64,000 nt of DNA from Candidatus Omnitrophota bacterium (GTDB lineage: Bacteria > Omnitrophota > Gorgyraeia > Gorgyraeales > Gorgyraeaceae). A model generated the notes under the pieces. The model worked only from the letters and a program-made list of their open reading frames with translations. It did not search any database and was not told the origin of the DNA. The translations under genes and the position numbers were made by a program. Position 1 is the stretch's first letter. The number at the start of each line of letters is the position of its first letter. Positions 11,250 through 56,459 of the stretch are shown piece by piece. The stretch covers positions 16,839 through 80,838 of the forward strand of contig JAUSEX010000040.1 of assembly GCA_030649895.1 (NCBI GenBank). The letters run 5' to 3'.

Positions 11250-11284
11250 CCCCGCATTCCCGAAAAGGGATGCGGGGTTTTTTA
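11250..11284 (+). terminator. Rho-independent terminator
   Basis: CCCCGCATTCCCG-AAAA-GGGATGCGGGG followed by TTTTTT. Confidence 0.75.
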
Positions 11285-11353: not shown

Positions 11354-14300
11354 ATGAATAGCGCGAGAGAAGAAAAAGGCATTGCGTTGATACTTGTGGT
11401 AAGCGTCCTGGCTGTCGCAAGCATAATGGCGATATCTTTTGCATTTACCATGAGGCTGGAATTGAAAGCCGCAGCCAATTATCTGGAAGCTACAAGGGCG
11501 TCTTATCTCGCGCAGTCAGGCATCACGTACGCGCAGCAGATTCTAAAAGAAGACTCGAGGGATATAGATAGCTTCGAAGACAAATGGCACACTATCTTTA
11601 CAGGCAGCGATATTGATAACGATGGAGACGGCCAGCCTGATTCAAAATGGATAAATATTTACAATGAGGAAAGCGAGGCCATAGGCAGGTATGCTGTCCT
11701 GGTGAGGGATGAAACCAGTTTTATGGATATAAATATAGCTTATAAGCACAATCTTTCGCTTTTAAAGGTTACGGAAGGCTGGACTCCATATGAGCTGGAC
11801 CTGCAAAAATTTATAAATTCTTCAGGCTTGAAAGATCCAGATAAGGTGTACGAAGATATCGTTAGTTTTAGGTATGGGTCTGATGGCCAGCCGGGCGAGA
11901 TGGGCGCGGACGATAACCAGAATCAAAGGATCCTGGATTCCGATGGCATCGATAATAACTCGAACGGCATCATAGATGAAGCGAGCGAAGGCGTGGATGA
12001 GCCGATGGAATACGAACCGTTTAATCTTCACGGGGACGACAAAGCATTCGAAACGCCTTTCGAAATAAGTAAAATTAAATCGATCGCAAAACAGGAGCTT
12101 TATAAATTGTATCCCTATATAACTACGTATTCGGTTGATAAGAATATAGATGTTCAGGGAAGGTTGAAGGATAATATTAATTCCATGGATAGCCAGACTC
12201 TTGCTGTATTGTTGGAAGACGCCGGCGTAAGCGACCCGTTTCAAAAAGCAGTTAATATTATAGACGCTTGTGACGATGATTTCAGCCAGAGTACCGTACC
12301 AAAATTATACAACAGGCTCGCAGTGATCAATAGAGGCGATACAGGAGACTGGATATGGAAAGGCAGCTGCTATCAGAGCGACGTAAAAGATGGGCAACCT
12401 TTTACGATTACCTGGATCAATCTTCCGGAAGGAGAATATTACATAGGCGTGTTTGGGATAAAAAATGAATTAGTGGGAGATGTTACTGTAAACGGCATGA
12501 CCCAGAATTATGTGAGGGATGGCGAGCTGCTGAGGATAGGGGCTGTCTCGTTTGAGAATAAAATCTTAAATCTTTCCATAAATAACAGCGCAGGGTCGGT
12601 TTGTTATTTTTCTTATCTTGAATTATATCCCAGGCTGGGCCAGCAGAATTTCAACTCGAGCGAGATAAGAGGCGTTGAAGGCATAAGGATAAATGAAATA
12701 ATGGTAAGGCCTGTTATTTCCAGAAGCACTTTTAGCAACCAGGCACCTGGCGGAGACTGGACATGGCAAAATGCATACTATCAGAATAGTCAGCCAAAGG
12801 GCGGAAAAACCGGGGAAGGCGAATGGACCTGGAAGGATGTTCCCAATGGCAAATATTACGCCAGGTTATTTGCGGGCGTAGCCGATCAGGAGATAGGAAA
12901 TGTTGAAATAGGGGGCGTTCATTCGGAAGGGATGAGAGACGGAGATTTGTTTGGCAGCGGAAAAGTTGTTACTGTCTCAGGCGGGAAATTTACTATTAGG
13001 ATTCAGAATCAAAGAGAAACAGGATCTACGTATTTTAAATCTGTAGATTTGAGCCAGCAACCTGACGGAGAATATATAGAGCTTATAAATCTCACTCCCA
13101 GGGACGTGAATCTGAGCGGCTGGACCGTAGAAGGCCCGAGCAAAGAAGGCTGGCCTGCTACTATCCCTCTTGGTACGACAATAGGCCCTCACGAGCACAT
13201 TGCGCTGGCTATTGATAAAGACGATACACAGTCAGGGATAAATAATAACGGTATTTCATTTACATCGATATGGGGTAAAGAAAAATCCACAACTTTGCAT
13301 TTTTTAAGGGTGATAAGCCCTAATTCCGATCTTCTGTCTGACGTTGCTTTTATGGGAGGGAATTTTATAGCGCTTAAAGAACCCATGGGCCATGTCGTGG
13401 ATAAGCAGGAATATTTTAGCGGCAATGCAGCTGATTATAAGGCATTGGAGAAATCAGACCCTAGCTATGTATTGGATTCAAATAATAACGGCATACCTGA
13501 CAACTGGTATGCGTCTACCGCGAAAAAAGGAGCGACGCCCGGCCTGCCTAATGATAATGACGGGATGAGAGAGAAGATAGGAGAAGAGATAATAGAGCAT
13601 TACGATACCGAGGTGAACGCAAAGAACAAGAATTTTTCTTCGATAGGAGAGATTTCATTTGTTTCGCTTGGAACTGAACCATGGAAGAGCATAGCTCCGC
13701 AGGATGTCGCGAAGATTGCGGACAGGCTTACCGTATTCGGGATAAAACTGGAAGCGGAAAATAAAATCGTGAAAGGTTCCGAAGGAAACTGGAAAGTTGT
13801 GCAGAGGGCAGCTCCCTTGACAGACTGGTGCGAAAATGGAAAAGAGGATTCGATCGGCATGTGGAGATGGGAGGCGAAGGATGGCTTGGAAAACGGCTAT
13901 TATAAATTGAAAATATTCGGGGAAGAAGGCGAGGCAATAGCCATATCAATACATCTCGCGGACGATACATGGACGAGTTTTACGCCGGCCCTCACCCCTG
14001 GGCCTGACAAAGGAATAAATTTTGGTAATATAGAAATAGGCACTGGTAGTTCTATAGCTACGCCGAGCGGGGTCCTGGAAATAAAAATAAAGAACAGTTC
14101 GGAGACAGGCGCCGCTCACTTTGATTTTATAAGCTTGGACCCAGTAAATAACCTATACGGCAGGATAAATGTAAATACAGCCTCTAAAAGAGTTTTAGCT
14201 ATTCTACCAGGTATAGATGACGCCATAGCGGATAATATAATTAATAACAGGGTTTTTGGGAATAAAAATAGCCTTTATCTTGGCATAGGCGATCTTATCA

Positions 14301-14470
14301 CCACCCAGGCGTTAGGCTCAACTGATGTGGATAAGAAAAATAGGTTCAGGCAGATTTCGAATCTTATCACAGTCCATTCCGATTGTTATAGGATTATTGT
14401 CACGGGCCAGGCTCTTGAAAAAGGGAAGGTCCTGGCTGAAAAGAAGATCTGGGTGGTGTTTGAGCGTTAA
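11354..14470 (+). CDS. Giant GspK/PilX-like minor pseudopilin with adhesin-like inserts
   Basis: N-terminus GIALILVVSVLAVASIMAISFAF...RLELKAAANYLEATRASYLAQSGI and C-terminus INVNTASKRVLAILPGIDDAIADNII (HhH pair) match the T2SS GspK family. Between them about 800 aa contain DxDxDG Ca-binding-like loops (DIDNDGDGQPD, DSDGIDNNSNG), three GDW(I/T)W...GEYY beta-sandwich-like repeats (nt ~12336-13980) and a lamin-tail-domain-like segment EYIELINLTPRDVNLSGWTVEG (nt ~13069-13230). Confidence 0.6.
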   Translation: MNSAREEKGIALILVVSVLAVASIMAISFAFTMRLELKAAANYLEATRASYLAQSGITYAQQILKEDSRDIDSFEDKWHTIFTGSDIDNDGDGQPDSKWINIYNEESEAIGRYAVLVRDETSFMDINIAYKHNLSLLKVTEGWTPYELDLQKFINSSGLKDPDKVYEDIVSFRYGSDGQPGEMGADDNQNQRILDSDGIDNNSNGIIDEASEGVDEPMEYEPFNLHGDDKAFETPFEISKIKSIAKQELYKLYPYITTYSVDKNIDVQGRLKDNINSMDSQTLAVLLEDAGVSDPFQKAVNIIDACDDDFSQSTVPKLYNRLAVINRGDTGDWIWKGSCYQSDVKDGQPFTITWINLPEGEYYIGVFGIKNELVGDVTVNGMTQNYVRDGELLRIGAVSFENKILNLSINNSAGSVCYFSYLELYPRLGQQNFNSSEIRGVEGIRINEIMVRPVISRSTFSNQAPGGDWTWQNAYYQNSQPKGGKTGEGEWTWKDVPNGKYYARLFAGVADQEIGNVEIGGVHSEGMRDGDLFGSGKVVTVSGGKFTIRIQNQRETGSTYFKSVDLSQQPDGEYIELINLTPRDVNLSGWTVEGPSKEGWPATIPLGTTIGPHEHIALAIDKDDTQSGINNNGISFTSIWGKEKSTTLHFLRVISPNSDLLSDVAFMGGNFIALKEPMGHVVDKQEYFSGNAADYKALEKSDPSYVLDSNNNGIPDNWYASTAKKGATPGLPNDNDGMREKIGEEIIEHYDTEVNAKNKNFSSIGEISFVSLGTEPWKSIAPQDVAKIADRLTVFGIKLEAENKIVKGSEGNWKVVQRAAPLTDWCENGKEDSIGMWRWEAKDGLENGYYKLKIFGEEGEAIAISIHLADDTWTSFTPALTPGPDKGINFGNIEIGTGSSIATPSGVLEIKIKNSSETGAAHFDFISLDPVNNLYGRINVNTASKRVLAILPGIDDAIADNIINNRVFGNKNSLYLGIGDLITTQALGSTDVDKKNRFRQISNLITVHSDCYRIIVTGQALEKGKVLAEKKIWVVFER

Positions 14471-14500: not shown

Positions 14501-14580
14501 AAAATAGGGAAAATAGGGACAGCGCCCATTTATTATTTATTTTTTATAGCATAAAAATGGGCGCTGTCCCTATTTTAGGA
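14501..14580. repeat. Family B palindromic repeat (copy 1 of 2), also terminator-like
   Basis: AAATAGGGACAGCGCCCATTT - 23 nt AT-rich loop - AAATGGGCGCTGTCCCTATTT, preceded by a GAAAATAGGG duplication; near-identical copy at 56262-56337. Confidence 0.7.
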
Positions 14581-16930: not shown

Positions 16931-18457
16931 ATGGCCAAGTTCAAGGCAAGTTCAATAGCCTTAGATATAGGCGCTCATTTTATAAAGCTTGTTGAGCTTA
17001 AAAAAGAGAAGGATAGTATTGTGCTGACCAAAATCGGCTTAAAAGAAATCCCGAGAGATTTGAAGCTCGACAGGGATAAAACTATCAGTTCGCTTATCTC
17101 CGCATTATTATTGGAGAATCATATAAAGCCGAATCCTGTAAACATATCTATAAGCGGCCAGTCTGTTTTTGTAAGATTCGTAAAGTTGTTGCAGGTAAAA
17201 GAGGATAAATTAAAACAGACTATGAAATTTGAAGCGCAAAACCAGATACCTTTCAGCATGAATGAGGTCATGTGGGACTGGTCTCTGCTGGATAACGACA
17301 AAAATTCATCCAGAAAGGCAGTCATAGTTGCGATAAAAAAAAATCTGGTAGAAGAGATTATTTCAAAACTCAATTCCGTTAAATTATCTGCCGGGTTGAT
17401 AGATGTGGCTCCTATAAGCGTGTATAACTGTATGATATTTAACGAAGACTTTAATGTCCAGGGGTTGGGAGCCATACTTGACATAGGCGCGAAATCCACC
17501 AATTTCATTATATTTAATAAAGGTAATATATGGATAAGAAGTTTTCCTATAGCTGGAGAGAGGATCGAGGAGGCTAAAGAGCATGGCGTAGAGGAGCTTC
17601 TGGCAGAGGTGGAGAGATCCCTGGAGTATTATTTTATGCAGGCAGGAGAAGACGCCCCGCAGGAAAAAAAGATAACCCAGCTTTTCCTGACAGGCGGCGG
17701 AAGCGTTATGGAAAATATAGAAGCATCGCTTGTTTCTAAATTTAGCGTAAAACCTCAGATTATGGATCCTTTTAGAAAATTAAGGGTATCTAAAGATGTA
17801 TATCAAAAACTCCAGGTATGCGGACCTAAGAATCAATTTTCTACGGTTGTGGGCGTGGCGCTGAGGGGCATGACTGGTCTGAAGATAGAGGTAAATTTTC
17901 TGAAAGAAATAGCTTTGGAAAAGAAATCCTCGTTCCGGAAACGTTTTTATGCTGGCCTTTCAATGGCCACAGGCGCGCTGGTGCTTATAAGCTTTTCCAT
18001 TTTTATGCGCCAGGATTACTATATAAAAAAGATCAAGCTTGATAAAGCGGAAGACATGATAGGGATATACAGGACCTATGAGCCGAAGATAAAGAATATA
18101 CAGGAAGAGGAAAATATTTTAAGAGGGGAAATAGATACCTTATATCAAACAGCCTTTTCCAGGGCTATATGGCTCGGGATATTTAAGGCTATTTCAGAGA
18201 TACTCCCCAAGGATGTCTGGGTTACGGATTTATCGGGAATCATCTCTATAGAAAAGAGCGGGCTTGGGAGAATGGATATGAACGGGAAAGCTCTGTCTTA
18301 TCAATCAGTTAATAATTTCGTGTCGAGCCTTAAGGCGTTGCCGAGCTTTAGCGATGTGCGGCCTGTATCGTCTTCCGTGGAAAACGACAAAGATACAGGG
18401 GAAGAAATAGTTAAATTCAGCATCACCATGGATGTTGTTTTATTGACGAATCAGTAG
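16931..18457 (+). CDS. pilMN: Type IV pilus assembly protein PilM-PilN fusion
   Basis: N-terminal actin-like ATPase fold of PilM (ALDIGAHFIKLVELKK...), a central TM helix (AGLSMATGALVLISFSIFM), then a PilN-like periplasmic region; 508 aa. Confidence 0.6.
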   Translation: MAKFKASSIALDIGAHFIKLVELKKEKDSIVLTKIGLKEIPRDLKLDRDKTISSLISALLLENHIKPNPVNISISGQSVFVRFVKLLQVKEDKLKQTMKFEAQNQIPFSMNEVMWDWSLLDNDKNSSRKAVIVAIKKNLVEEIISKLNSVKLSAGLIDVAPISVYNCMIFNEDFNVQGLGAILDIGAKSTNFIIFNKGNIWIRSFPIAGERIEEAKEHGVEELLAEVERSLEYYFMQAGEDAPQEKKITQLFLTGGGSVMENIEASLVSKFSVKPQIMDPFRKLRVSKDVYQKLQVCGPKNQFSTVVGVALRGMTGLKIEVNFLKEIALEKKSSFRKRFYAGLSMATGALVLISFSIFMRQDYYIKKIKLDKAEDMIGIYRTYEPKIKNIQEEENILRGEIDTLYQTAFSRAIWLGIFKAISEILPKDVWVTDLSGIISIEKSGLGRMDMNGKALSYQSVNNFVSSLKALPSFSDVRPVSSSVENDKDTGEEIVKFSITMDVVLLTNQ

Positions 18458-18497
18458 GGGGCAGGCGCGCCTGTTCTCTACAAGGGTATGGTGCGAG

Positions 18498-19259
18498 ATG
18501 TTAAAACCCGGCAGAGAAAAAATTATTCTGAAACAGGGGCTTATAATACTTGCTGTTTTGGCGGGTATTTATATATTTTTCCTTAGCCCGTTTCTTAAGG
18601 AAGGCCGCTCAATAATGGACGAAGAGCTGGAGCGAAAGATAAGCGAAATGAAAAGATTTATTACGCTTACCGGGACAGTGCCTTCAAAGGAAAGCTTTAC
18701 CAGGATGGAGAAGGACAGAGAGTCCCTGGAAGAAAAATTTTCCAGCCTGGTGAATTTTATAGATCCGAATAAGGCGAGGTTTTCTGAAAAAAATACGGAG
18801 GCAGGGCTTTATTTTATAGAAAAACTTCATTCTACGATGAAAAAATTCGAAATAGACGCAGGGTCCAAAACCGTGAAGCTTCCAGAGAACCTTGGTTTTG
18901 GGGATGGCCTTCCAAAGGACGCCATAGTGCCTGTGCTTCTGAGGCAGCTTGAGATAGTGGAGTTTACCGTAGACGCGCTTTTAAAAAGCAATAGCTCGGA
19001 TATTTATAATCTGAAACCGCTTAAGCCTATTGAATACATAGAGCCTATTTCAAAGAAACTTTTTTATACTGAACTGCCTATCCAGATTTCCATAAAAACA
19101 ACAACTGACGCGTTTACGAATCTTTTGCTGGAGCTTAAGAACGCCAGCCCAGTAATCAACGTAAAAGAATTGCATGTTAAGAGCGTCGAACCTGGTTCAG
19201 GAGAATTGGAGATAAGCCTGGTATTAAGCAGCCTTATGGTCACGAGGAAAGAGAAATGA
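18498..19259 (+). CDS. pilO: PilO/GspM-like pilus assembly protein
   Basis: Single N-terminal TM, coiled coil, then a ferredoxin-like periplasmic region; placement after pilMN. Confidence 0.45.
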   Translation: MLKPGREKIILKQGLIILAVLAGIYIFFLSPFLKEGRSIMDEELERKISEMKRFITLTGTVPSKESFTRMEKDRESLEEKFSSLVNFIDPNKARFSEKNTEAGLYFIEKLHSTMKKFEIDAGSKTVKLPENLGFGDGLPKDAIVPVLLRQLEIVEFTVDALLKSNSSDIYNLKPLKPIEYIEPISKKLFYTELPIQISIKTTTDAFTNLLLELKNASPVINVKELHVKSVEPGSGELEISLVLSSLMVTRKEK

Positions 19260-24862: not shown

Positions 24863-24918
24863 TAATAATCGCGGAACCACGCGGAAGCCATGCTTAAATT
24901 TCGCATGGTTTCGCGATT
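24863..24918. repeat. Family C repeat (copy 1 of 2): TAATAATCGCGGAACCACGCGGAAGCC...TTTCGCGATT hairpin, terminator-like
   Basis: Begins at the lacI stop (TGA) TAATAATCGCGG. Arms AATCGCGGAACCA/TGGTTTCGCGATT. The 26-nt 5' half is nearly identical to 51766-51791. Confidence 0.6.
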
Positions 24919-24934
24919 GACAAAAGGGGCAATT

Positions 24935-25177
24935 ATGTTAAAAAAGGCTTTTATGTTTTTTATAGGATTTCTATGCGCTTGGATTATTTTTTCGATGGGA
25001 ATAAAAAAAGGCGTATGTCAGGTAAACACGCCGTCTAATATTTATTTTTCCGGGGATAGCACTAATATCTATTTTTTTGACAAGGACGAATTTAAGATAT
25101 ATAAGTACAATACGCAAGGCAAACTAACCCGCACCTATACAGTCAAAGAATTAGGAAAAGACTTTCTGTTGAAATAA
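24935..25177 (+). CDS. Small hypothetical membrane protein
   Basis: AAAAGGGG SD then ATG; one TM (FMFFIGFLCAWIIFSMG). The ORF-track start at 24890 lies inside the family C repeat and is probably an artefact. Confidence 0.3.
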   Translation: MLKKAFMFFIGFLCAWIIFSMGIKKGVCQVNTPSNIYFSGDSTNIYFFDKDEFKIYKYNTQGKLTRTYTVKELGKDFLLK

Positions 25178-25178
25178 C

Positions 25179-26450
25179 GTGTTTCATTTACTCGTATCAG
25201 ATAAATCAGGCAAGATATTCGATATTCCAGAGCTGGAAGCCGCAGGGATGAAGGCAGGTCATTTTTTCAAGCCCGACAGAGAAGAATTTATTAAACTTCC
25301 GGAAGCCAGCAAACTTTTTATGCTGCCTGAAAGAATACCTGTGGGATACGATAGTATTAGCGGAAAATGCAGGGCGCTGGAAAATTATTTTGCGGTAGCC
25401 GCGTTTATAGCGCCGGGATTTACAGGCACTTATAGCGCTGCTCATGAACTTATCCGACTCCGTGAGTCGCCGTACGGCGACTCACGGAGTCGGAATAAGG
25501 CGCTCCCGCTTTTCTGTTACACCGCAGCTGGTTTTTATAAAGGGGATATCTATGTTGCTGCAGTCAGGGTAGACAGGTCAAGCAGGCATGATCCGAGACT
25601 CATAAATATCAAACTCGTAGCTAAAAATATAATAAAAATAAAAAAGTTATTTCCCGCTAACAGGCTTATCAGGCATCTAGAAGGCTGCGCTATGATCCAT
25701 GGCTGTCCAGGCGCGCAGAATTTTTTCTTATCAAGAGAGGAATGCCCTTTACCCGTATCTCCTTCCTGCAACGCAAGCTGCGCAGGATGTATCTCATTAA
25801 AGACGCAGCCAAGGATAAAATTTACGCCTTCTCCGGAAGAAATAGCAGAGACAGCTTTATTTTATATTCGTAATGTTACAGCAGGGGGCGGTCGCAACCG
25901 CCCCCTGCTTAGTTTCGGCCAGGGATGCGAAGGCGAACCTTTGATGGAGGCTGATTTAATTGAAAAATCAATAAGGTTGATCAGAGGCAAAACCGATAAG
26001 GGCGCTATAAATATCAATACAAACGCCTCTAGGCATGAGGCGATAGCCAGGCTGTTTGATGCGGGGCTGGATAGCATCAGGGTCAGCATGAATAGCGCCA
26101 GGAAAGAATATTACGAAAGGTATTATAAACCCAGGGGGTATGGTTTTGAGGATGTATTATCGTCTATAAGAATAGCTAAACAGAAAAAAGGTTTTGTGTC
26201 AATTAATTATTTAACTATGCCTGGGTTTACGGATTCTGAGGATGAATTTGCAGCGTTTAAGAAATTTATAGAGGCTTACAGGATAGATATGATCCAATGG
26301 CGCAACCTGAATTTTGACCCTCTTCATTACTTTAAGATCATGAAATACTATGGCCGGCCTTCTGCCATGATAGGCGTCAGGCAATTGATAGTCTCCCTGA
26401 AAAAATCTTTCCCCGCCCTCAAGATGGGCTACTATAACCCGTTTTTATAA
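25179..26450 (+). CDS. Radical SAM domain protein carrying an in-frame palindromic repeat insertion
   Basis: CxxxCxxC motif (SPSCNASCAGCISL) and a TIM-barrel-like downstream region. The family A palindrome at 25453-25494 is read in-frame as IRLRESPYGDSRSRN. Confidence 0.6.
   Translation: MFHLLVSDKSGKIFDIPELEAAGMKAGHFFKPDREEFIKLPEASKLFMLPERIPVGYDSISGKCRALENYFAVAAFIAPGFTGTYSAAHELIRLRESPYGDSRSRNKALPLFCYTAAGFYKGDIYVAAVRVDRSSRHDPRLINIKLVAKNIIKIKKLFPANRLIRHLEGCAMIHGCPGAQNFFLSREECPLPVSPSCNASCAGCISLKTQPRIKFTPSPEEIAETALFYIRNVTAGGGRNRPLLSFGQGCEGEPLMEADLIEKSIRLIRGKTDKGAININTNASRHEAIARLFDAGLDSIRVSMNSARKEYYERYYKPRGYGFEDVLSSIRIAKQKKGFVSINYLTMPGFTDSEDEFAAFKKFIEAYRIDMIQWRNLNFDPLHYFKIMKYYGRPSAMIGVRQLIVSLKKSFPALKMGYYNPFL
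25449..25498. repeat. Family A palindromic element (copy 1 of 4), inside a CDS
   Basis: 42-nt perfect palindrome TCCGACTCCGTGAGTCGCCG-TA-CGGCGACTCACGGAGTCGGA with TTAT/ATAA flanks. Confidence 0.85.
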
Positions 26451-29526: not shown

Positions 29527-31044
29527 ATGTCTAAAAAACATATTATAAAATCAGCCGGGACGATAGGGTTCGCCACAGTGATAAGCAGGGTGCTGGGCTT
29601 TGTGAGGGATATTATCATTGCCAGGTATTTTGGCACAGCCAGGTATGCCGAGGCTTTTGTAGTCGCGTTCCGTATACCGAATATGTTAAGAGATCTGGTG
29701 GGAGAAGGCGCCACGAATGCGGCTTTTGTGCCTGTCTTAAGCGAATATGCGGTGAAGAAAAAAGAAGAGTTCTGGGAACTGGCCAATGTTATATTAAATC
29801 TGTTGCTTGTGACGCTTTCCGCTATAACCGTTGCCGGCATTTTTGCTTCGCCATGGATTGTCAGATTTATGGCCCCGGGTTTTTTGGATGATCCTGAAAA
29901 ATTCGCAATAACAGTAAAGCTGACGCGCCTGATGTTCCCTTATATACTTCTTATCGGCCTGACTGCTTACACAATGGGCGTATTGAATTCTCTAAAGCAT
30001 TTTTCAGCGCCTGCGTTCGGGCCGTGTCTCCTTAATATAGCGATAATAATATGCGCGATCATTTGGGGTGAAAGCGTGATGGGCCTAGTGAGCGGCGTTT
30101 TAATAGGCGGGATACTGCAGCTTGCGGTACAGATACCGGTCTTATATAAAAAAGGTTTCAAGTTTTCGTTTGCAATAAAATTAAACCACCCGGCTGCAAA
30201 TAAAATAGGGACCCTGATGTTGCCACGCGTTATCGGCTCATGCATGTATCAGTTAAACCTGTTTATAAACACTATTTTAGCGTCTTTATCCGGCGTGGTG
30301 GGTTCAGGAGGGGTTGCGGCGCTTTATTATGCAAACAGGATTTTCCAATTTCCTCTGGCCATATTCGGGATTGCAATAGCTCAGGCAGCATTGCCTACCA
30401 TGTCCAGAGAGGCGCTGGAAAAAGAACCGGATAAATTAAAGCTCACGCTTTCTTTTTCATTAAGGGTTATAAATTTTATTATTATTCCAGCCTCAATCGG
30501 TCTTATAGTTCTGGCGGTTCCAATAACGAAAACCTTGTTTGAAAGAGGAAAGTTTGACCAATATTCAACTTTAATTACAGCTAATGCGCTTGTCTTTTAT
30601 TCCATAGGCCTTTTCAGTTATTCCGGGATAAAGATACTTGTAAGTTGTTTTTATTCTCTGCAGGATACGCTTACTCCGGTAAAGATTGCAGGCGCATCGC
30701 TTCTCCTGAATATAGCGCTTAATCTGGCGCTGATGTTTCCTTTAAAGATAGGCGGGTTGGCGCTCGCCGCCTCTATTTCCGGGATTTTTAATTTTTTAGC
30801 GCTTTTTTTTATATTAAGAAATAAGATAGGGCCTCTGGATGGCCGCAGGATACTGAATTCTTTTCTAAAGGTGCTATTGGCAAGCCTGGCAATGGCCGCG
30901 GTTATTTATATATGCGCTTTTAAAATAAACCTGAACCTTTTTATTGTGATATTAATAGCTATGCTAAGCTATGTCGGCGCAACGTTTATTTTTGATGTAA
31001 AAGAGGCGAAGGAATTTTTGTCATGGGCGTCAACGAGAAAATGA
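29527..31044 (+). CDS. murJ: Lipid II flippase MurJ/MviN
   Basis: GFATVISRVLGFVRDIIIARYFGTARYAEAFVVAFRIPNMLRDLVGEGA is the MurJ N-terminal signature; 505 aa polytopic. Confidence 0.85.
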   Translation: MSKKHIIKSAGTIGFATVISRVLGFVRDIIIARYFGTARYAEAFVVAFRIPNMLRDLVGEGATNAAFVPVLSEYAVKKKEEFWELANVILNLLLVTLSAITVAGIFASPWIVRFMAPGFLDDPEKFAITVKLTRLMFPYILLIGLTAYTMGVLNSLKHFSAPAFGPCLLNIAIIICAIIWGESVMGLVSGVLIGGILQLAVQIPVLYKKGFKFSFAIKLNHPAANKIGTLMLPRVIGSCMYQLNLFINTILASLSGVVGSGGVAALYYANRIFQFPLAIFGIAIAQAALPTMSREALEKEPDKLKLTLSFSLRVINFIIIPASIGLIVLAVPITKTLFERGKFDQYSTLITANALVFYSIGLFSYSGIKILVSCFYSLQDTLTPVKIAGASLLLNIALNLALMFPLKIGGLALAASISGIFNFLALFFILRNKIGPLDGRRILNSFLKVLLASLAMAAVIYICAFKINLNLFIVILIAMLSYVGATFIFDVKEAKEFLSWASTRK

Positions 31045-32336
31045 AGCTCCGCGGGTTAAAACCTTCAATTTCCTGTAGCGAATGTATAAAAGATATCCCG
31101 CACCTCCCAGGGGTTTATATTATGAAGGATGCTTCCGGAGAGGCCATTTATATAGGCAAGGCCAAAGACCTTTTTAAAAGGGTGTCCAGCTATTTTCAGG
31201 AATCAAGGCCCAGGACGGCAAAGCTTATATCGTTGTTGGAGAAAGTAAAAGGCCTGGATTACGTGGTTACCGGTTCGGAAGAAGAGGCTCTTATATATGA
31301 AGCGAGCCTGATAAAGGAGAAAAAACCGAGATATAATGTTGAATTAAAAGACGACAAGACCTTCCCTTTTTTAAAAATTGGATTAAACGAAAAGTTCCCG
31401 AGGCTTACCATAACAAGAAAAAAAATAGACGATGGTTCTAGGTACTTTGGGCCTTATACAAAGGTGGGGCTTTTAAGAAACGCTGTAGGCATATTGAAGA
31501 ATATATTTCCTATGCGAATCTGCAAGAGAATGCCCGGCGAGGTATGCCTGGCTTACCATATAGGGCAATGCATGGGCCCGTGCGTGAATAAAGTGGATGA
31601 AGAATCATATAGCGCAATAGTCAGGCAGCTGATTTTATTTCTGGAAGGCAAAAAAACAATATTGATACAGGAATTAACGGACAATATGAAAAGGTTTGCC
31701 GATAAAAAAGATTTTGAGCGGGCTGCAATCATGCGCAACAGGCTGTCAGCCCTTTTGGAGGTATCTGACAGAAAAACAGCCGATTATAGCTCGTGGGGGA
31801 ATGTCGCTTTAAAATTAAAGAAAATCCTGAAGTTAGCTAGCCTGCCGCTAAGGATAGAGGCGTTTGACGTTTCGAATATATCCGGCAAAGAAGCTACTGG
31901 TTCGATGGTTTATTTTAATAACGGCGTGCCGGATAAATCAAATTACAGAAAATTCAGGATAAAAAACGTAAAAGGCGTTGATGATTACGCTATGATGAAA
32001 GAGATTGTCCGCAGAAGGTATAAAAGATTAAAGGAAGAGAACGTAAAATTTCCGGATCTTGTTATAATAGACGGCGGAAAAGGCCATTTGGCCGCAGCGC
32101 ATGAGGAGCTTCTGAAATTAAATCTTAGCCATGTGCCTGTAATAGGCATCGCCAAGCAGGAGGAAAAGATATATACGCTCGATTCATCAAAGCCGCTTGA
32201 TATAAACAGAGACTCGGAGATGTTGCATTTTATACAAAGCGTAAGGGACGAGGCGCACAGGTTTGCGTTGAAGTATCACCACGTTCTTCGCCACAACAAC
32301 TTTACAAATTCCGACTTCGCGAGTCGCCGCAGGTAG
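31041..32336 (+). CDS. uvrC: Excinuclease ABC subunit C, C-terminally short form (no HhH tail)
   Basis: GIY-YIG domain (GVYIMKDASGEAIYIGKAKDLFKRVSSYF), UVR motif, RNase H-like endonuclease region up to DEAHRFA. The gene then ends with a 10-aa tail (TNSDFASRRR) encoded by a family A palindrome; the ~130-aa (HhH)2 region is absent. ATGA overlap with the murJ stop. Confidence 0.7.
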   Translation: MKLRGLKPSISCSECIKDIPHLPGVYIMKDASGEAIYIGKAKDLFKRVSSYFQESRPRTAKLISLLEKVKGLDYVVTGSEEEALIYEASLIKEKKPRYNVELKDDKTFPFLKIGLNEKFPRLTITRKKIDDGSRYFGPYTKVGLLRNAVGILKNIFPMRICKRMPGEVCLAYHIGQCMGPCVNKVDEESYSAIVRQLILFLEGKKTILIQELTDNMKRFADKKDFERAAIMRNRLSALLEVSDRKTADYSSWGNVALKLKKILKLASLPLRIEAFDVSNISGKEATGSMVYFNNGVPDKSNYRKFRIKNVKGVDDYAMMKEIVRRRYKRLKEENVKFPDLVIIDGGKGHLAAAHEELLKLNLSHVPVIGIAKQEEKIYTLDSSKPLDINRDSEMLHFIQSVRDEAHRFALKYHHVLRHNNFTNSDFASRRR

Positions 32337-32354
32337 GCGACTCACGGAGTCGGA
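32310..32354. repeat. Family A palindromic element (copy 2 of 4), spanning the uvrC stop codon
   Basis: TCCGACTTCGCGAGTCGCC-GCAGGTA-GGCGACTCACGGAGTCGGA; the two arm mismatches are C/T transitions compatible with G-U pairing in RNA. Confidence 0.8.
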
Positions 32355-36533: not shown

Positions 36534-36542
36534 TTTTACCTG

Positions 36543-36586
36543 TCCGACTCCTTGAGTCGCCCCTCATGGCGACTCAAGGAGTCGGA
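36543..36586. repeat. Family A palindromic element (copy 3 of 4), secA-lnt intergenic
   Basis: TCCGACTCCTTGAGTCGCC-CCTCAT-GGCGACTCAAGGAGTCGGA; a CGTG to CTTG change in one arm is mirrored by CACG to CAAG in the other. Confidence 0.85.
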
Positions 36587-36596
36587 TATAGGTCAT

Positions 36597-49914: not shown

Positions 49915-49941
49915 CAGGGAACGGTTTAAAACCGTTCCCTG
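49915..49941 (+). promoter_or_regulatory. Perfect 13-bp stem hairpin between ruvA and ruvB
   Basis: CAGGGAACGGTTT-A-AAACCGTTCCCTG; no T-run follows; ruvB ATG 18 nt downstream. Confidence 0.4.
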
Positions 49942-54747: not shown

Positions 54748-54750
54748 CCT

Positions 54751-54794
54751 ATCCGACTCCGTGAGTCGCCGTGCACGGCGACTCACGGAGTCGG
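54751..54794. repeat. Family A palindromic element (copy 4 of 4), ispF-cysS intergenic
   Basis: 44-nt perfect palindrome TCCGACTCCGTGAGTCGCCGTGCACGGCGACTCACGGAGTCGGA, followed by a GGAGG SD and the cysS GTG. Confidence 0.85.
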
Positions 54795-54806
54795 ATGGAG
54801 GTTTGC

Positions 54807-56261: not shown

Positions 56262-56337
56262 AGGAAAATAGGGACAGCGACCATTTTTTGTTGTCCTTTG
56301 TTTTTTAATTTTAAAAAAATGGTCGCTGTCCCTATAT
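56262..56337. repeat. Family B palindromic repeat (copy 2 of 2)
   Basis: AAAATAGGGACAGCGACCATTTT - 28 nt AT-rich loop - AAAATGGTCGCTGTCCCTAT; compare 14501-14580. Confidence 0.7.
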
Positions 56338-56459
56338 ACCAGAAATTTTTATGTCGTCAAGACTACTTTCGGTATAAAAAATTAGCCGTAAACCGTAGCG
56401 GACGGCAAAACTATTTCAGCGCCGAATGGCCCAAGCCCGCTCCAGAACATAGGAGCTAC

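Follow-up and report, generated by a model that had tools for sequence, protein, structure and literature searches.

A compact REP-like palindromic doublet in frame in a radical SAM gene of Omnitrophota, in a loop that appears to have been filled repeatedly by unrelated palindromes

Introduction

Intragenic REPs with a GTAG or CGTC tag are known from several species, with the highest counts in Opitutus terrae and R. conorii (Di Nocera et al. 2013, PMC3733652). Their dimers encode 20–30 residues, double insertions in one gene occur, and in one case, Xanthomonas recB, different REPs lie at about the same site; the GTAG tetranucleotide serves as a REP criterion (PMC3733652). REP doublets were defined as mobile, RAYT-linked hairpins by Bertels & Rainey 2011 (PMC3116915). 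The palindromic RPEs of Rickettsia, about 100–150 bp long, are found in frame in many unrelated genes, according to the work of Ogata (2000, 2002) as cited in PMC10969869.

Here we describe a palindrome, termed type A, that is read in frame within a radical SAM gene of Candidatus Omnitrophota, located in a 64-kb stretch of DNA (the window). In-frame palindromic repeats have thus already been published, and Omnitrophota is a new phylum for the phenomenon; a literature search found no paper linking Omnitrophota with palindromic repeats.

Results

A self-complementary element is read in frame

The gene carries two palindromes of different families:

25179–26450, plus strand: radical SAM protein gene, 423 aa, intact and under purifying selection
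25449–25498, no strand assigned: type-A palindromic element (REP doublet), in frame in the radical SAM gene, encoding (L)IRLRESPYGDSRSRN(K)
25880–25909, no strand assigned: second in-frame palindrome, of a different family, AGCAGGGGGCGGT-CGCA-ACCGCCCCCTGCT, encoding (T)AGGGRNRPL(L)

Positions 25453–25494 consist of TCCGACTCCGTGAGTCGCCGT followed directly by ACGGCGACTCACGGAGTCGGA, a sequence of 42 nt that equals its own reverse complement. Pairing of the outer arms (CTTAT/ATAAG), with a bulge of one base, carries the symmetry out to 25449–25498, the same palindrome and the same limits that the initial annotation had given. Each arm contains a 6-bp mini-palindrome of its own (CGACTC-CGT-GAGTCG and CGACTC-ACG-GAGTCG). 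With two inverted short palindromic units set head-to-head in one long hairpin, type A therefore has the architecture of a REPIN. The hairpin is predicted to be very stable both as RNA (–44.5 kcal/mol, z = –8.5, with 0 of 200 shuffles folding equally well) and as DNA (–27.5 kcal/mol, z = –8.3 to about –8.4, matched by no shuffle).

Within the radical SAM gene the element is read without a stop as RLRESPYGDSRSR (translated sequence ...AAHELIRLRESPYGDSRSRNKALPLF..., in the context ...AAHELI-RLRESPYGDSRSR-NKALPLF...), corresponding to residues 92–105 of the 423-aa protein. This agrees with the earlier claim of stop-free translation upstream of the CxxxCxxC motif, whose cysteines are C197, C201 and C204. 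As also claimed, two of the three frames of the palindrome are open, frame 0 (SDSVSRRTATHGVG) and frame 2 (RLRESPYGDSRSR), and frame 1 contains a TGA; because type A is its own reverse complement, the same two frames are open on both strands.

The natural element exceeds 42 nt. A consensus of 25 metagenomic copies reads ACCTRT-CCGACTCCGTGAGTCGCC-(3–8 nt)-GGCGACTCACGGAGTCGG-AYAGGT, with a loop of 3–8 nt and a length range of 42–54 nt, equivalent to 14–18 residues. The GTAG tag of canonical REPs is absent from type A (consensus ACCTRTCCGACTCC...).

The host protein is a full-length radical SAM enzyme under constraint

The host protein has a beta-rich N-terminal domain (approximately residues 1–135), which has no Pfam match, and a Pfam Radical_SAM domain at residues 192–358. 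A MAG of Candidatus Omnitrophota encodes an identical protein (100%), named "radical SAM protein". NCBIfam gives sub-threshold matches only (MoaA, PFL-AE and others), and a Foldseek comparison with the PDB returns generic radical SAM cores only (BlsE, LipA, PFL-AE and MoaA).

Thousands of homologues span the host protein end to end. Among the species-representative genomes that were scanned, those of Omnitrophota, Desulfobacterota, Bacteroidota, KSB1 and other phyla contain relatives that align from residues ~1–5 through 421–423, and each of these cross-phylum relatives is encoded by one gene of about 415 aa. The existence of full-length, single-gene homologues across phyla means that the N-terminal ~190 residues are part of the family.

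All invariant residues are intact in the host protein. Comparison of the window gene with four orthologues gave dN/dS values of 0.11–0.15 for the whole gene and 0.10–0.16 for the 85 codons upstream of the insert, and these low values indicate that both sides of the insert are translated and constrained. Translation across the insert itself is deduced from the intact frame together with the purifying selection. The dN/dS values and the invariant residues support a functional host enzyme, which would be active with the insert in place.

The type-A element entered a loop that is empty in the closest orthologue

Orthologous loci were retrieved as DNA, eleven at first and later thirteen. Their gene order is conserved (LacI, small ORF, radical SAM, BamD/YfiO, LptE, holA), which identifies the fetched loci as true orthologues. 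The alignment comprised 48 sequences, 38 of the ingroup and 10 of an outgroup with 55–62% identity. In all 10 outgroup proteins the conserved AAY and LPL motifs are separated by a loop of 8 residues with no insert, and the ancestral loop, EE(I/V)(N/S)NPK, is retained by several ingroup proteins. Among these is P0002 (locus L081), the closest orthologue of the window protein (83% identity, sister at bootstrap 100), which lacks the type-A insert. Relative to the ancestral 8-residue loop, the window protein has 11 additional residues at this position, referred to below as the first loop. The sequence of the empty loop is GAAGAGGTTAGTAATCCAAAA.

An AlphaFold2 model of the host protein (mean pLDDT 81.6) places the insert in a low-confidence stretch, residues 91–113, with pLDDT below 50 and no secondary structure, between strands 88–90 and 117–120 of the N-terminal domain. 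As modelled, the type-A insert is a loop within the beta-rich N-terminal domain and not an inter-domain linker.

The initial annotation had offered two explanations, a tolerated linker insertion comparable to Rickettsia RPEs and a fusion of two formerly separate ORFs. A tolerated in-frame insertion of the RPE kind is supported by the insert-free P0002 and 10 of 10 outgroup proteins, the ancestral loop, the disordered site and the dN/dS of 0.10–0.16 upstream. Insertion is thus the part of the "linker insertion" proposal that stands, the extra residues being absent from sister and outgroup proteins alike; the linker part does not, as the insert sits in a loop of the N-terminal domain itself. The fusion proposal is refuted, the N-terminal part belonging to the same protein in orthologues near and distant.

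The first loop has received several unrelated palindromes

A codon alignment shows the inserts at the first loop to be DNA palindromes without exception. They fall into at least four unrelated families, all within the interval AAY...LPLF:

Type A: the window gene (WIN), L082, L085, L086, L096 and L104
Type B, AATTCCCGTTCnCCGAACGGGAATT doublets: L084, L089 and L117
Type C, CACCTACG... arms: L083 and L087
Type D, CCTTCCTCACCCCTGGGGTG...: L001 and L088 (tandemly duplicated in L088)

The tandem duplication, of the element plus 12 nt, occurs in L088 only. Relatives of types C and A are also intergenic repeats in those genomes. In total, the first loop is at least 7 residues longer than the ancestral loop in 19 of the 38 ingroup proteins.

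On a gene tree built with the insert columns masked, each palindrome type is scattered, and well-supported sisters differ in state:

P0001, type A; P0002, ancestral loop (bootstrap 100)
P0019, type A; P0022, type B (bootstrap 100; 92% protein and 91% DNA identity)
P0009, type B; P0020, none (bootstrap 100)
P0011, type A; P0028/P0031, none (bootstrap 98)

Type A is identical over 44 nt in the window gene and L082, while the two genes share only 75.6% DNA identity (p about 5e-6), which points to recent arrival rather than old descent. For flanks of 105 nt to either side, the difference in similarity from the rest of the gene (near minus rest) was –0.016 in same-type and –0.015 in different-type pairs. 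Since the flanks of same-type alleles are no more alike than the rest of the gene, recombination of sizeable tracts is unlikely and repeated insertion is favoured. The junction sequences also differ among type-A alleles.

Several inserts are no longer perfect. P0018 and P0005 carry degenerate type-A peptides, and in L118 (P0017) an internal in-frame deletion of 30 nt has left the remnant TT...TCGGAGTAGGAAT; comparable scars seem to be present in several other proteins. Taken together, the sequences indicate recurrent insertion and decay at one loop.

Two further sites in the same gene

The second element of the window gene (25880–25909) is a perfect palindrome situated between a helix and the conserved LSFGQGCEGEP strand, where pLDDT falls below 50 at residues 235–238. 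Its counterpart in orthologues is GTAGGGGGCGGTCGCGACCGCCCCCTAC, with GTAG...CTAC at the positions where the window has the paired variant GCAG...CTGC. The element is present in 7 of the 38 ingroup proteins (absent from 31) and in no outgroup protein, and its family also occurs in frame in the der gene of L110. A third site lies directly after the CxxxCxxC motif; GTAGGGGACAGGCATGCCTGTCCCCTAC is found there in L082, L085 and L086 and is absent from the window gene.

Type A is a repeat family in the window and in related metagenomes

The 18-nt half-site occurs eight times in the 64-kb window, forming four elements, against 0.03 occurrences expected, so the repeat is not due to chance. Besides the copy in the radical SAM gene, the window contains:

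32311–32353, no strand assigned: type-A copy that overlaps the 3′ end of the uvrC-like ORF 31023–32336 and has two mismatches in the left arm
36541–36588, no strand assigned: intergenic type-A copy, flanked by the secA stop (36533) and an lnt-like gene
54749–54798, no strand assigned: perfectly palindromic type-A copy whose arms measure 25 nt, between the ispF stop (54747) and cysS

Three of the four copies are therefore at gene 3′ ends, and the first of those listed provides the final ~8 codons and the stop of the uvrC-like ORF. Within the window, long GC-rich palindromes lie inside a reading frame in this radical SAM gene only.

No T-run was found 3′ of any of the four window copies, and an identity of type A as an intrinsic terminator is rejected on that ground. 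By contrast, the stretch 11250–11277 of the window has TTTTTT directly after it.

A metagenome-wide search recovered the exact type-A doublet at 25 loci in metagenome contigs. In the flanks of 29 copies, inspection showed nothing consistent apart from the outer arms of the element, neither a target motif nor a target-site duplication. In comparison with MITEs, the whole of type A is one palindrome, and there is no consistent flanking direct repeat.

Type A is read through in unrelated genes

Of the 25 exact metagenomic copies, 15 (~60%) lie within long open frames or genes, and 10 of these 15 frames are real genes as judged by Pfam, with single domain matches that cross the insert:

IspG/GcpE: type A in frame, match covering Pfam profile positions 1–340 of 343
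AlaS: type A in frame, match covering Pfam profile positions 1–552 of 552
KsgA; Der/EngA; DprA: type A in frame, Pfam match across the insert
GltD-like oxidoreductase; GT2 glycosyltransferase; papain-family peptidase (C1): type A in frame, Pfam match across the insert
Radical SAM/DUF6873 protein; Nuo/Mrp antiporter subunit: type A in frame, Pfam match across the insert

The encoded peptides always correspond to frame 0 or 2 (...RLRESP... or ...SDSVSR..., then GDSRSR, ATHGVG or RLTESD), and all are hydrophilic. The idea that in-frame tolerance is built into the element is accordingly supported by read-through in these two frames in at least 10 other Pfam-verified genes. The intragenic share of about 60% among exact copies is atypical for palindromes classed as "extragenic" and counts against a REP/REPIN reading.

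A REP-associated transposase ORF is flanked by type-A doublets

A related metagenomic contig, L092, contains a 211-aa ORF (308–943) with HUH-like (PTHLHLAL) and YIHLNP motifs. The ORF scores 27.5 bits against Pfam Y1_Tnp (cutoff 23). Its best NCBIfam match is the REP-associated tyrosine transposase (REP_Tyr_transpos, E = 1.6e-15, below the curated cutoff), and its sole PDB match is E. coli TnpA-REP, 4ER8 (E = 0.002). Type-A doublets are present on both sides of this ORF, at 234–286 and ~956–1008. Searches of the 64-kb window by tblastn with E. coli RayT and the L092 RAYT detected no RAYT. From the arrangement on L092, we infer that type A is probably associated with a RAYT in the present genome as well.

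The hairpin seems to be kept symmetric

Arm-compensating paired variants of type A occur in L085, in L086 and in the window copy 36541–36588, where a G>T / C>A pair spans both arms. L085 and L096 are 98.8% identical, and 2 of their 15 differences are at exactly complementary arm positions; the chance of a partner site changing to the complementary base is roughly 0.004–0.01. In the second element, which the window gene and L081 share by descent, there are 4 differences in 30 nt, one of them paired, against ~10 expected at the synonymous rate (p = 0.009). These comparisons suggest that the hairpin has been kept symmetric after insertion, and simple neutral decay does not fit all of the symmetry data. 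Possible causes of such upkeep are repair templated by the hairpin, conversion from other copies, and selection for a structure in RNA or DNA.

Discussion

We consider it likely that the feature belongs to a family of short palindromes of the REP/REPIN kind, mobile but non-autonomous, and that this copy landed in a permissive loop of a functional radical SAM gene. In the mechanism that we propose, two inverted units of ~20 nt, each with a 6-bp mini-hairpin (CGACTC-nnn-GAGTCG), would fold into a hairpin of ~23 bp, and a REP-associated tyrosine (HUH/Y1) transposase would mobilise type A in trans through single-stranded hairpin DNA. The window copy would have arrived in its lineage after the split from the nearest sampled relative, landing between two beta strands of the N-terminal domain at a site able to accept it. 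With two stop-free frames in either orientation, both giving Ser/Arg/Asp/Gly-rich hydrophilic peptides, the ribosome would read through, and the protein would gain a disordered loop of ~13–17 residues and presumably keep its function. Inserts would later decay by point mutation and in-frame internal deletion, and in related genomes the first loop would have been filled independently by at least four palindrome families.

Two other origins of the arrangement were weighed and carry almost no probability. A fusion of two once-separate genes across an intergenic palindrome is hardly credible. It would account for the position of type A between a Pfam-less N-terminal part and the radical SAM domain, and other type-A copies are indeed intergenic, yet in all homologues, those without a palindrome in other phyla included, one protein of ~415 aa comprises both the N-terminal part and the radical SAM core, the 85 N-terminal codons evolve at a dN/dS of 0.10–0.16, and the insert lies within the beta-rich domain rather than after it. 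An origin in place, by template switching or quasi-palindrome correction during replication of a sequence that is not mobile, is very improbable. The symmetry does run a few bases into what may be flanking gene sequence, and paired changes do occur in place; against this, the same sequence of 42–52 nt is present at three other sites in the window and at 25 metagenomic loci, both flanks of the RAYT among them, and the sister gene has the unmodified loop. We reject this origin, given the dispersal of identical copies.

The patchy distribution of types could alternatively stem from a few ancient insertions whose alleles were shuffled by homologous recombination among co-occurring Omnitrophota. 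Identical type-A sequence in genes with 75.6% DNA identity would fit such exchange, and the similar groundwater and sediment sources of the metagenomes would make it plausible; the lack of any same-type excess of similarity in the 105-nt flanks and the differing type-A junctions make it a quite unlikely account, with short conversion tracts confined to the loop as its possible form. It is also unlikely, to a slightly lesser degree, that the hairpin is kept for a function in the host, as a translational pause in the mRNA, a processing site for RNase III or another enzyme, or an internal attenuator, with lineages recruiting whichever palindromes are available. The filling of one loop by at least four unrelated families in different lineages, the RNA hairpin of –44.5 kcal/mol, the symmetry-preserving arm changes between close relatives and the slow change of the second element relative to synonymous sites speak for such a function. 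Half of the ingroup, every outgroup orthologue and the sister gene, however, have no hairpin here; degenerate and internally deleted copies occur; the scatter of type A over many unrelated genes and gene ends fits selfish spread; and paired differences can also arise from insertion of already symmetric variants or from hairpin-templated repair. As a tentative extension of the mobile-element reading, and one we hold to be doubtful, the first loop (and less so the two other sites) may be a targeted integration hotspot for several REPIN-like families, with the hairpin actively kept symmetric through repair templated by the hairpin or through selection for mRNA structure. If so, either RAYT-type transposition has a recognisable target in coding regions or the host makes use of hairpins within its genes, and the locus would offer a natural system for the study of REPIN target choice and persistence.

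Selfish DNA within protein-coding genes is familiar from Rickettsia and from a few Proteobacteria and Verrucomicrobia; a mobile palindrome in this gene would add the uncultivated Omnitrophota, and would link a coding-competent palindrome directly to a REP-associated transposase. The orthologues provide an evolutionary series within one gene, from empty loop through perfect and degenerate insert to deletion scar. The refilling of an 8-residue loop by unrelated palindromes suggests that mobile hairpins can steadily vary loop length in essential enzymes, and it poses the question of what makes a hotspot. The class of mechanism is a known one, but the hotspot and the seeming maintenance of the hairpin are unexpected and open to testing. 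On the practical side, such inserts can mislead gene callers, the assignment of domain boundaries and alignments of metagenome-derived proteins.

The element shares features with each of the three described systems. Like intragenic REPs, the palindromes are short, lie mostly at gene 3′ ends and sometimes in frame, are often dimers and are sometimes found twice in one gene, and the second element of the window gene belongs to the GTAG...CTAC family. Unlike them, type A has neither a GTAG nor a CGTC tag, and in contrast to the single case of Xanthomonas recB, one loop is here reused by at least four families in what appear to be many independent events. Opitutus terrae, like the Omnitrophota, belongs to the PVC group. 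Type A resembles Rickettsia RPEs, as far as the citing source portrays them, as a selfish palindromic repeat in frame in unrelated, functional and often essential genes, where it encodes a family-specific peptide at sites that tolerate it in the fold. By the same account RPEs are ~100–150 bp long, encode tens of residues and belong to an obligate intracellular alphaproteobacterium, whereas type A measures 42–54 nt (14–18 residues), occurs in another phylum and is linked to a RAYT, a distinction drawn from their descriptions. With the REPIN-RAYT system type A shares the doublet of inverted units, the long hairpin and the compensatory arm changes, and the same repeat flanks a single RAYT on L092. 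Described REPINs are longer (in P. fluorescens, for example, the units are 71 or 110 bp apart) and count as extragenic (PMC3116915), whereas type A is compact, with a loop of 3–8 nt, its exact metagenomic copies are mostly intragenic, and its RAYT is known from L092. What is distinctive here is a compact, untagged, RAYT-linked doublet that is frequently intragenic, together with a single loop reused by several palindrome families.

The radical SAM gene (25179-26450, forward strand) contains a second perfect palindrome in-frame at 25880-25909, which belongs to a different family from type A (the REP-doublet palindromes) and codes for AGGGRNRPL. In orthologues this family has the form GTAG...CTAC; the element is missing from most orthologues of the gene, and the window copy differs from the family consensus by a paired change, T>C / A>G. 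At the loop of this protein that holds the type-A element, orthologue P0016 (locus L088) has a 26-residue insert, encoded by a type-D palindrome, from another family, present twice in tandem, together with a duplicated TATACCGGAYTT.

Alignment A1, of close (ingroup) and distant (outgroup) orthologues, shows that relative to the outgroup, 7 residues directly following the CxxxCxxC motif (query residues ~205-210) are lost in most ingroup proteins, including that of the window. The sequence here reads ISLK-TQ in ingroup proteins with the loss vs. ISYQPxxxCPxTQ in the outgroup, and four ingroup proteins carry the palindrome-encoded KHSRGQACLSP at this spot instead.

Upstream of the radical SAM gene lies a small conserved ORF (24890-25177; 80-95 aa) without a Pfam match. 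In all syntenic loci a single nucleotide separates its end from the GTG with which the radical SAM gene begins, and this arrangement suggests that the two are translationally coupled and function as partners.

Two different in-frame palindromes within a single gene were found in der/engA (1493-2881) of the compared locus L110:

Type-A element, in-frame, between the two GTPase domains
GGGRDRPL element, of the same family as window 25880-25909, in-frame, in the first GTPase domain

In the uvrC-like ORF (31023-32336), a type-A copy at 32311-32353 provides the stop codon as well as the ~8 codons in front of it (SDFASRRR). Its orthologues in L083 and L084 have other 3′ endings than that of the window, and in L084 the matching place holds an unrelated palindrome rich in AT, AACTTTACAAATG...CATTTGTAAAGTT. 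The prfB-secA spacer of L084 contains a perfect 60-nt palindrome (19045-19104) related to type C, a further family, followed by another of 38 nt.

Additional intergenic elements in the window comprise a third repeat family, with arms AAAATAGGGACAGCGCCCATTT / AAATGGGCGCTGTCCCTATTTT separated by an AT-rich spacer of 23-24 nt, and GTAG-type palindromes:

14510-14576, third family, directly downstream of the long gene 11354-14470
56263-56340, third family, directly downstream of the long gene cysS
18454-18481, GTAG-type, GTAGGGGGCAGGCGCGCCTGTTCTCTAC
49915-49941, GTAG-type, CAGGGAACGGTTTAAAACCGTTCCCTG

L085 (3305-3335) and L087 (3256-3285) have relatives of the GTAG-type palindromes at the orthologous intergenic site, and a further related copy is present in L084 (13982-14010).

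A REP-associated tyrosine transposase (RAYT) gene, at 308-943 of L092, has type-A doublets on either side (234-286 and ~956-1008), their units reversed in order between the two sides. A further RAYT homologue lies in another Omnitrophota MAG, at 680-1138 of L004 (32% identity, E = 2e-19).
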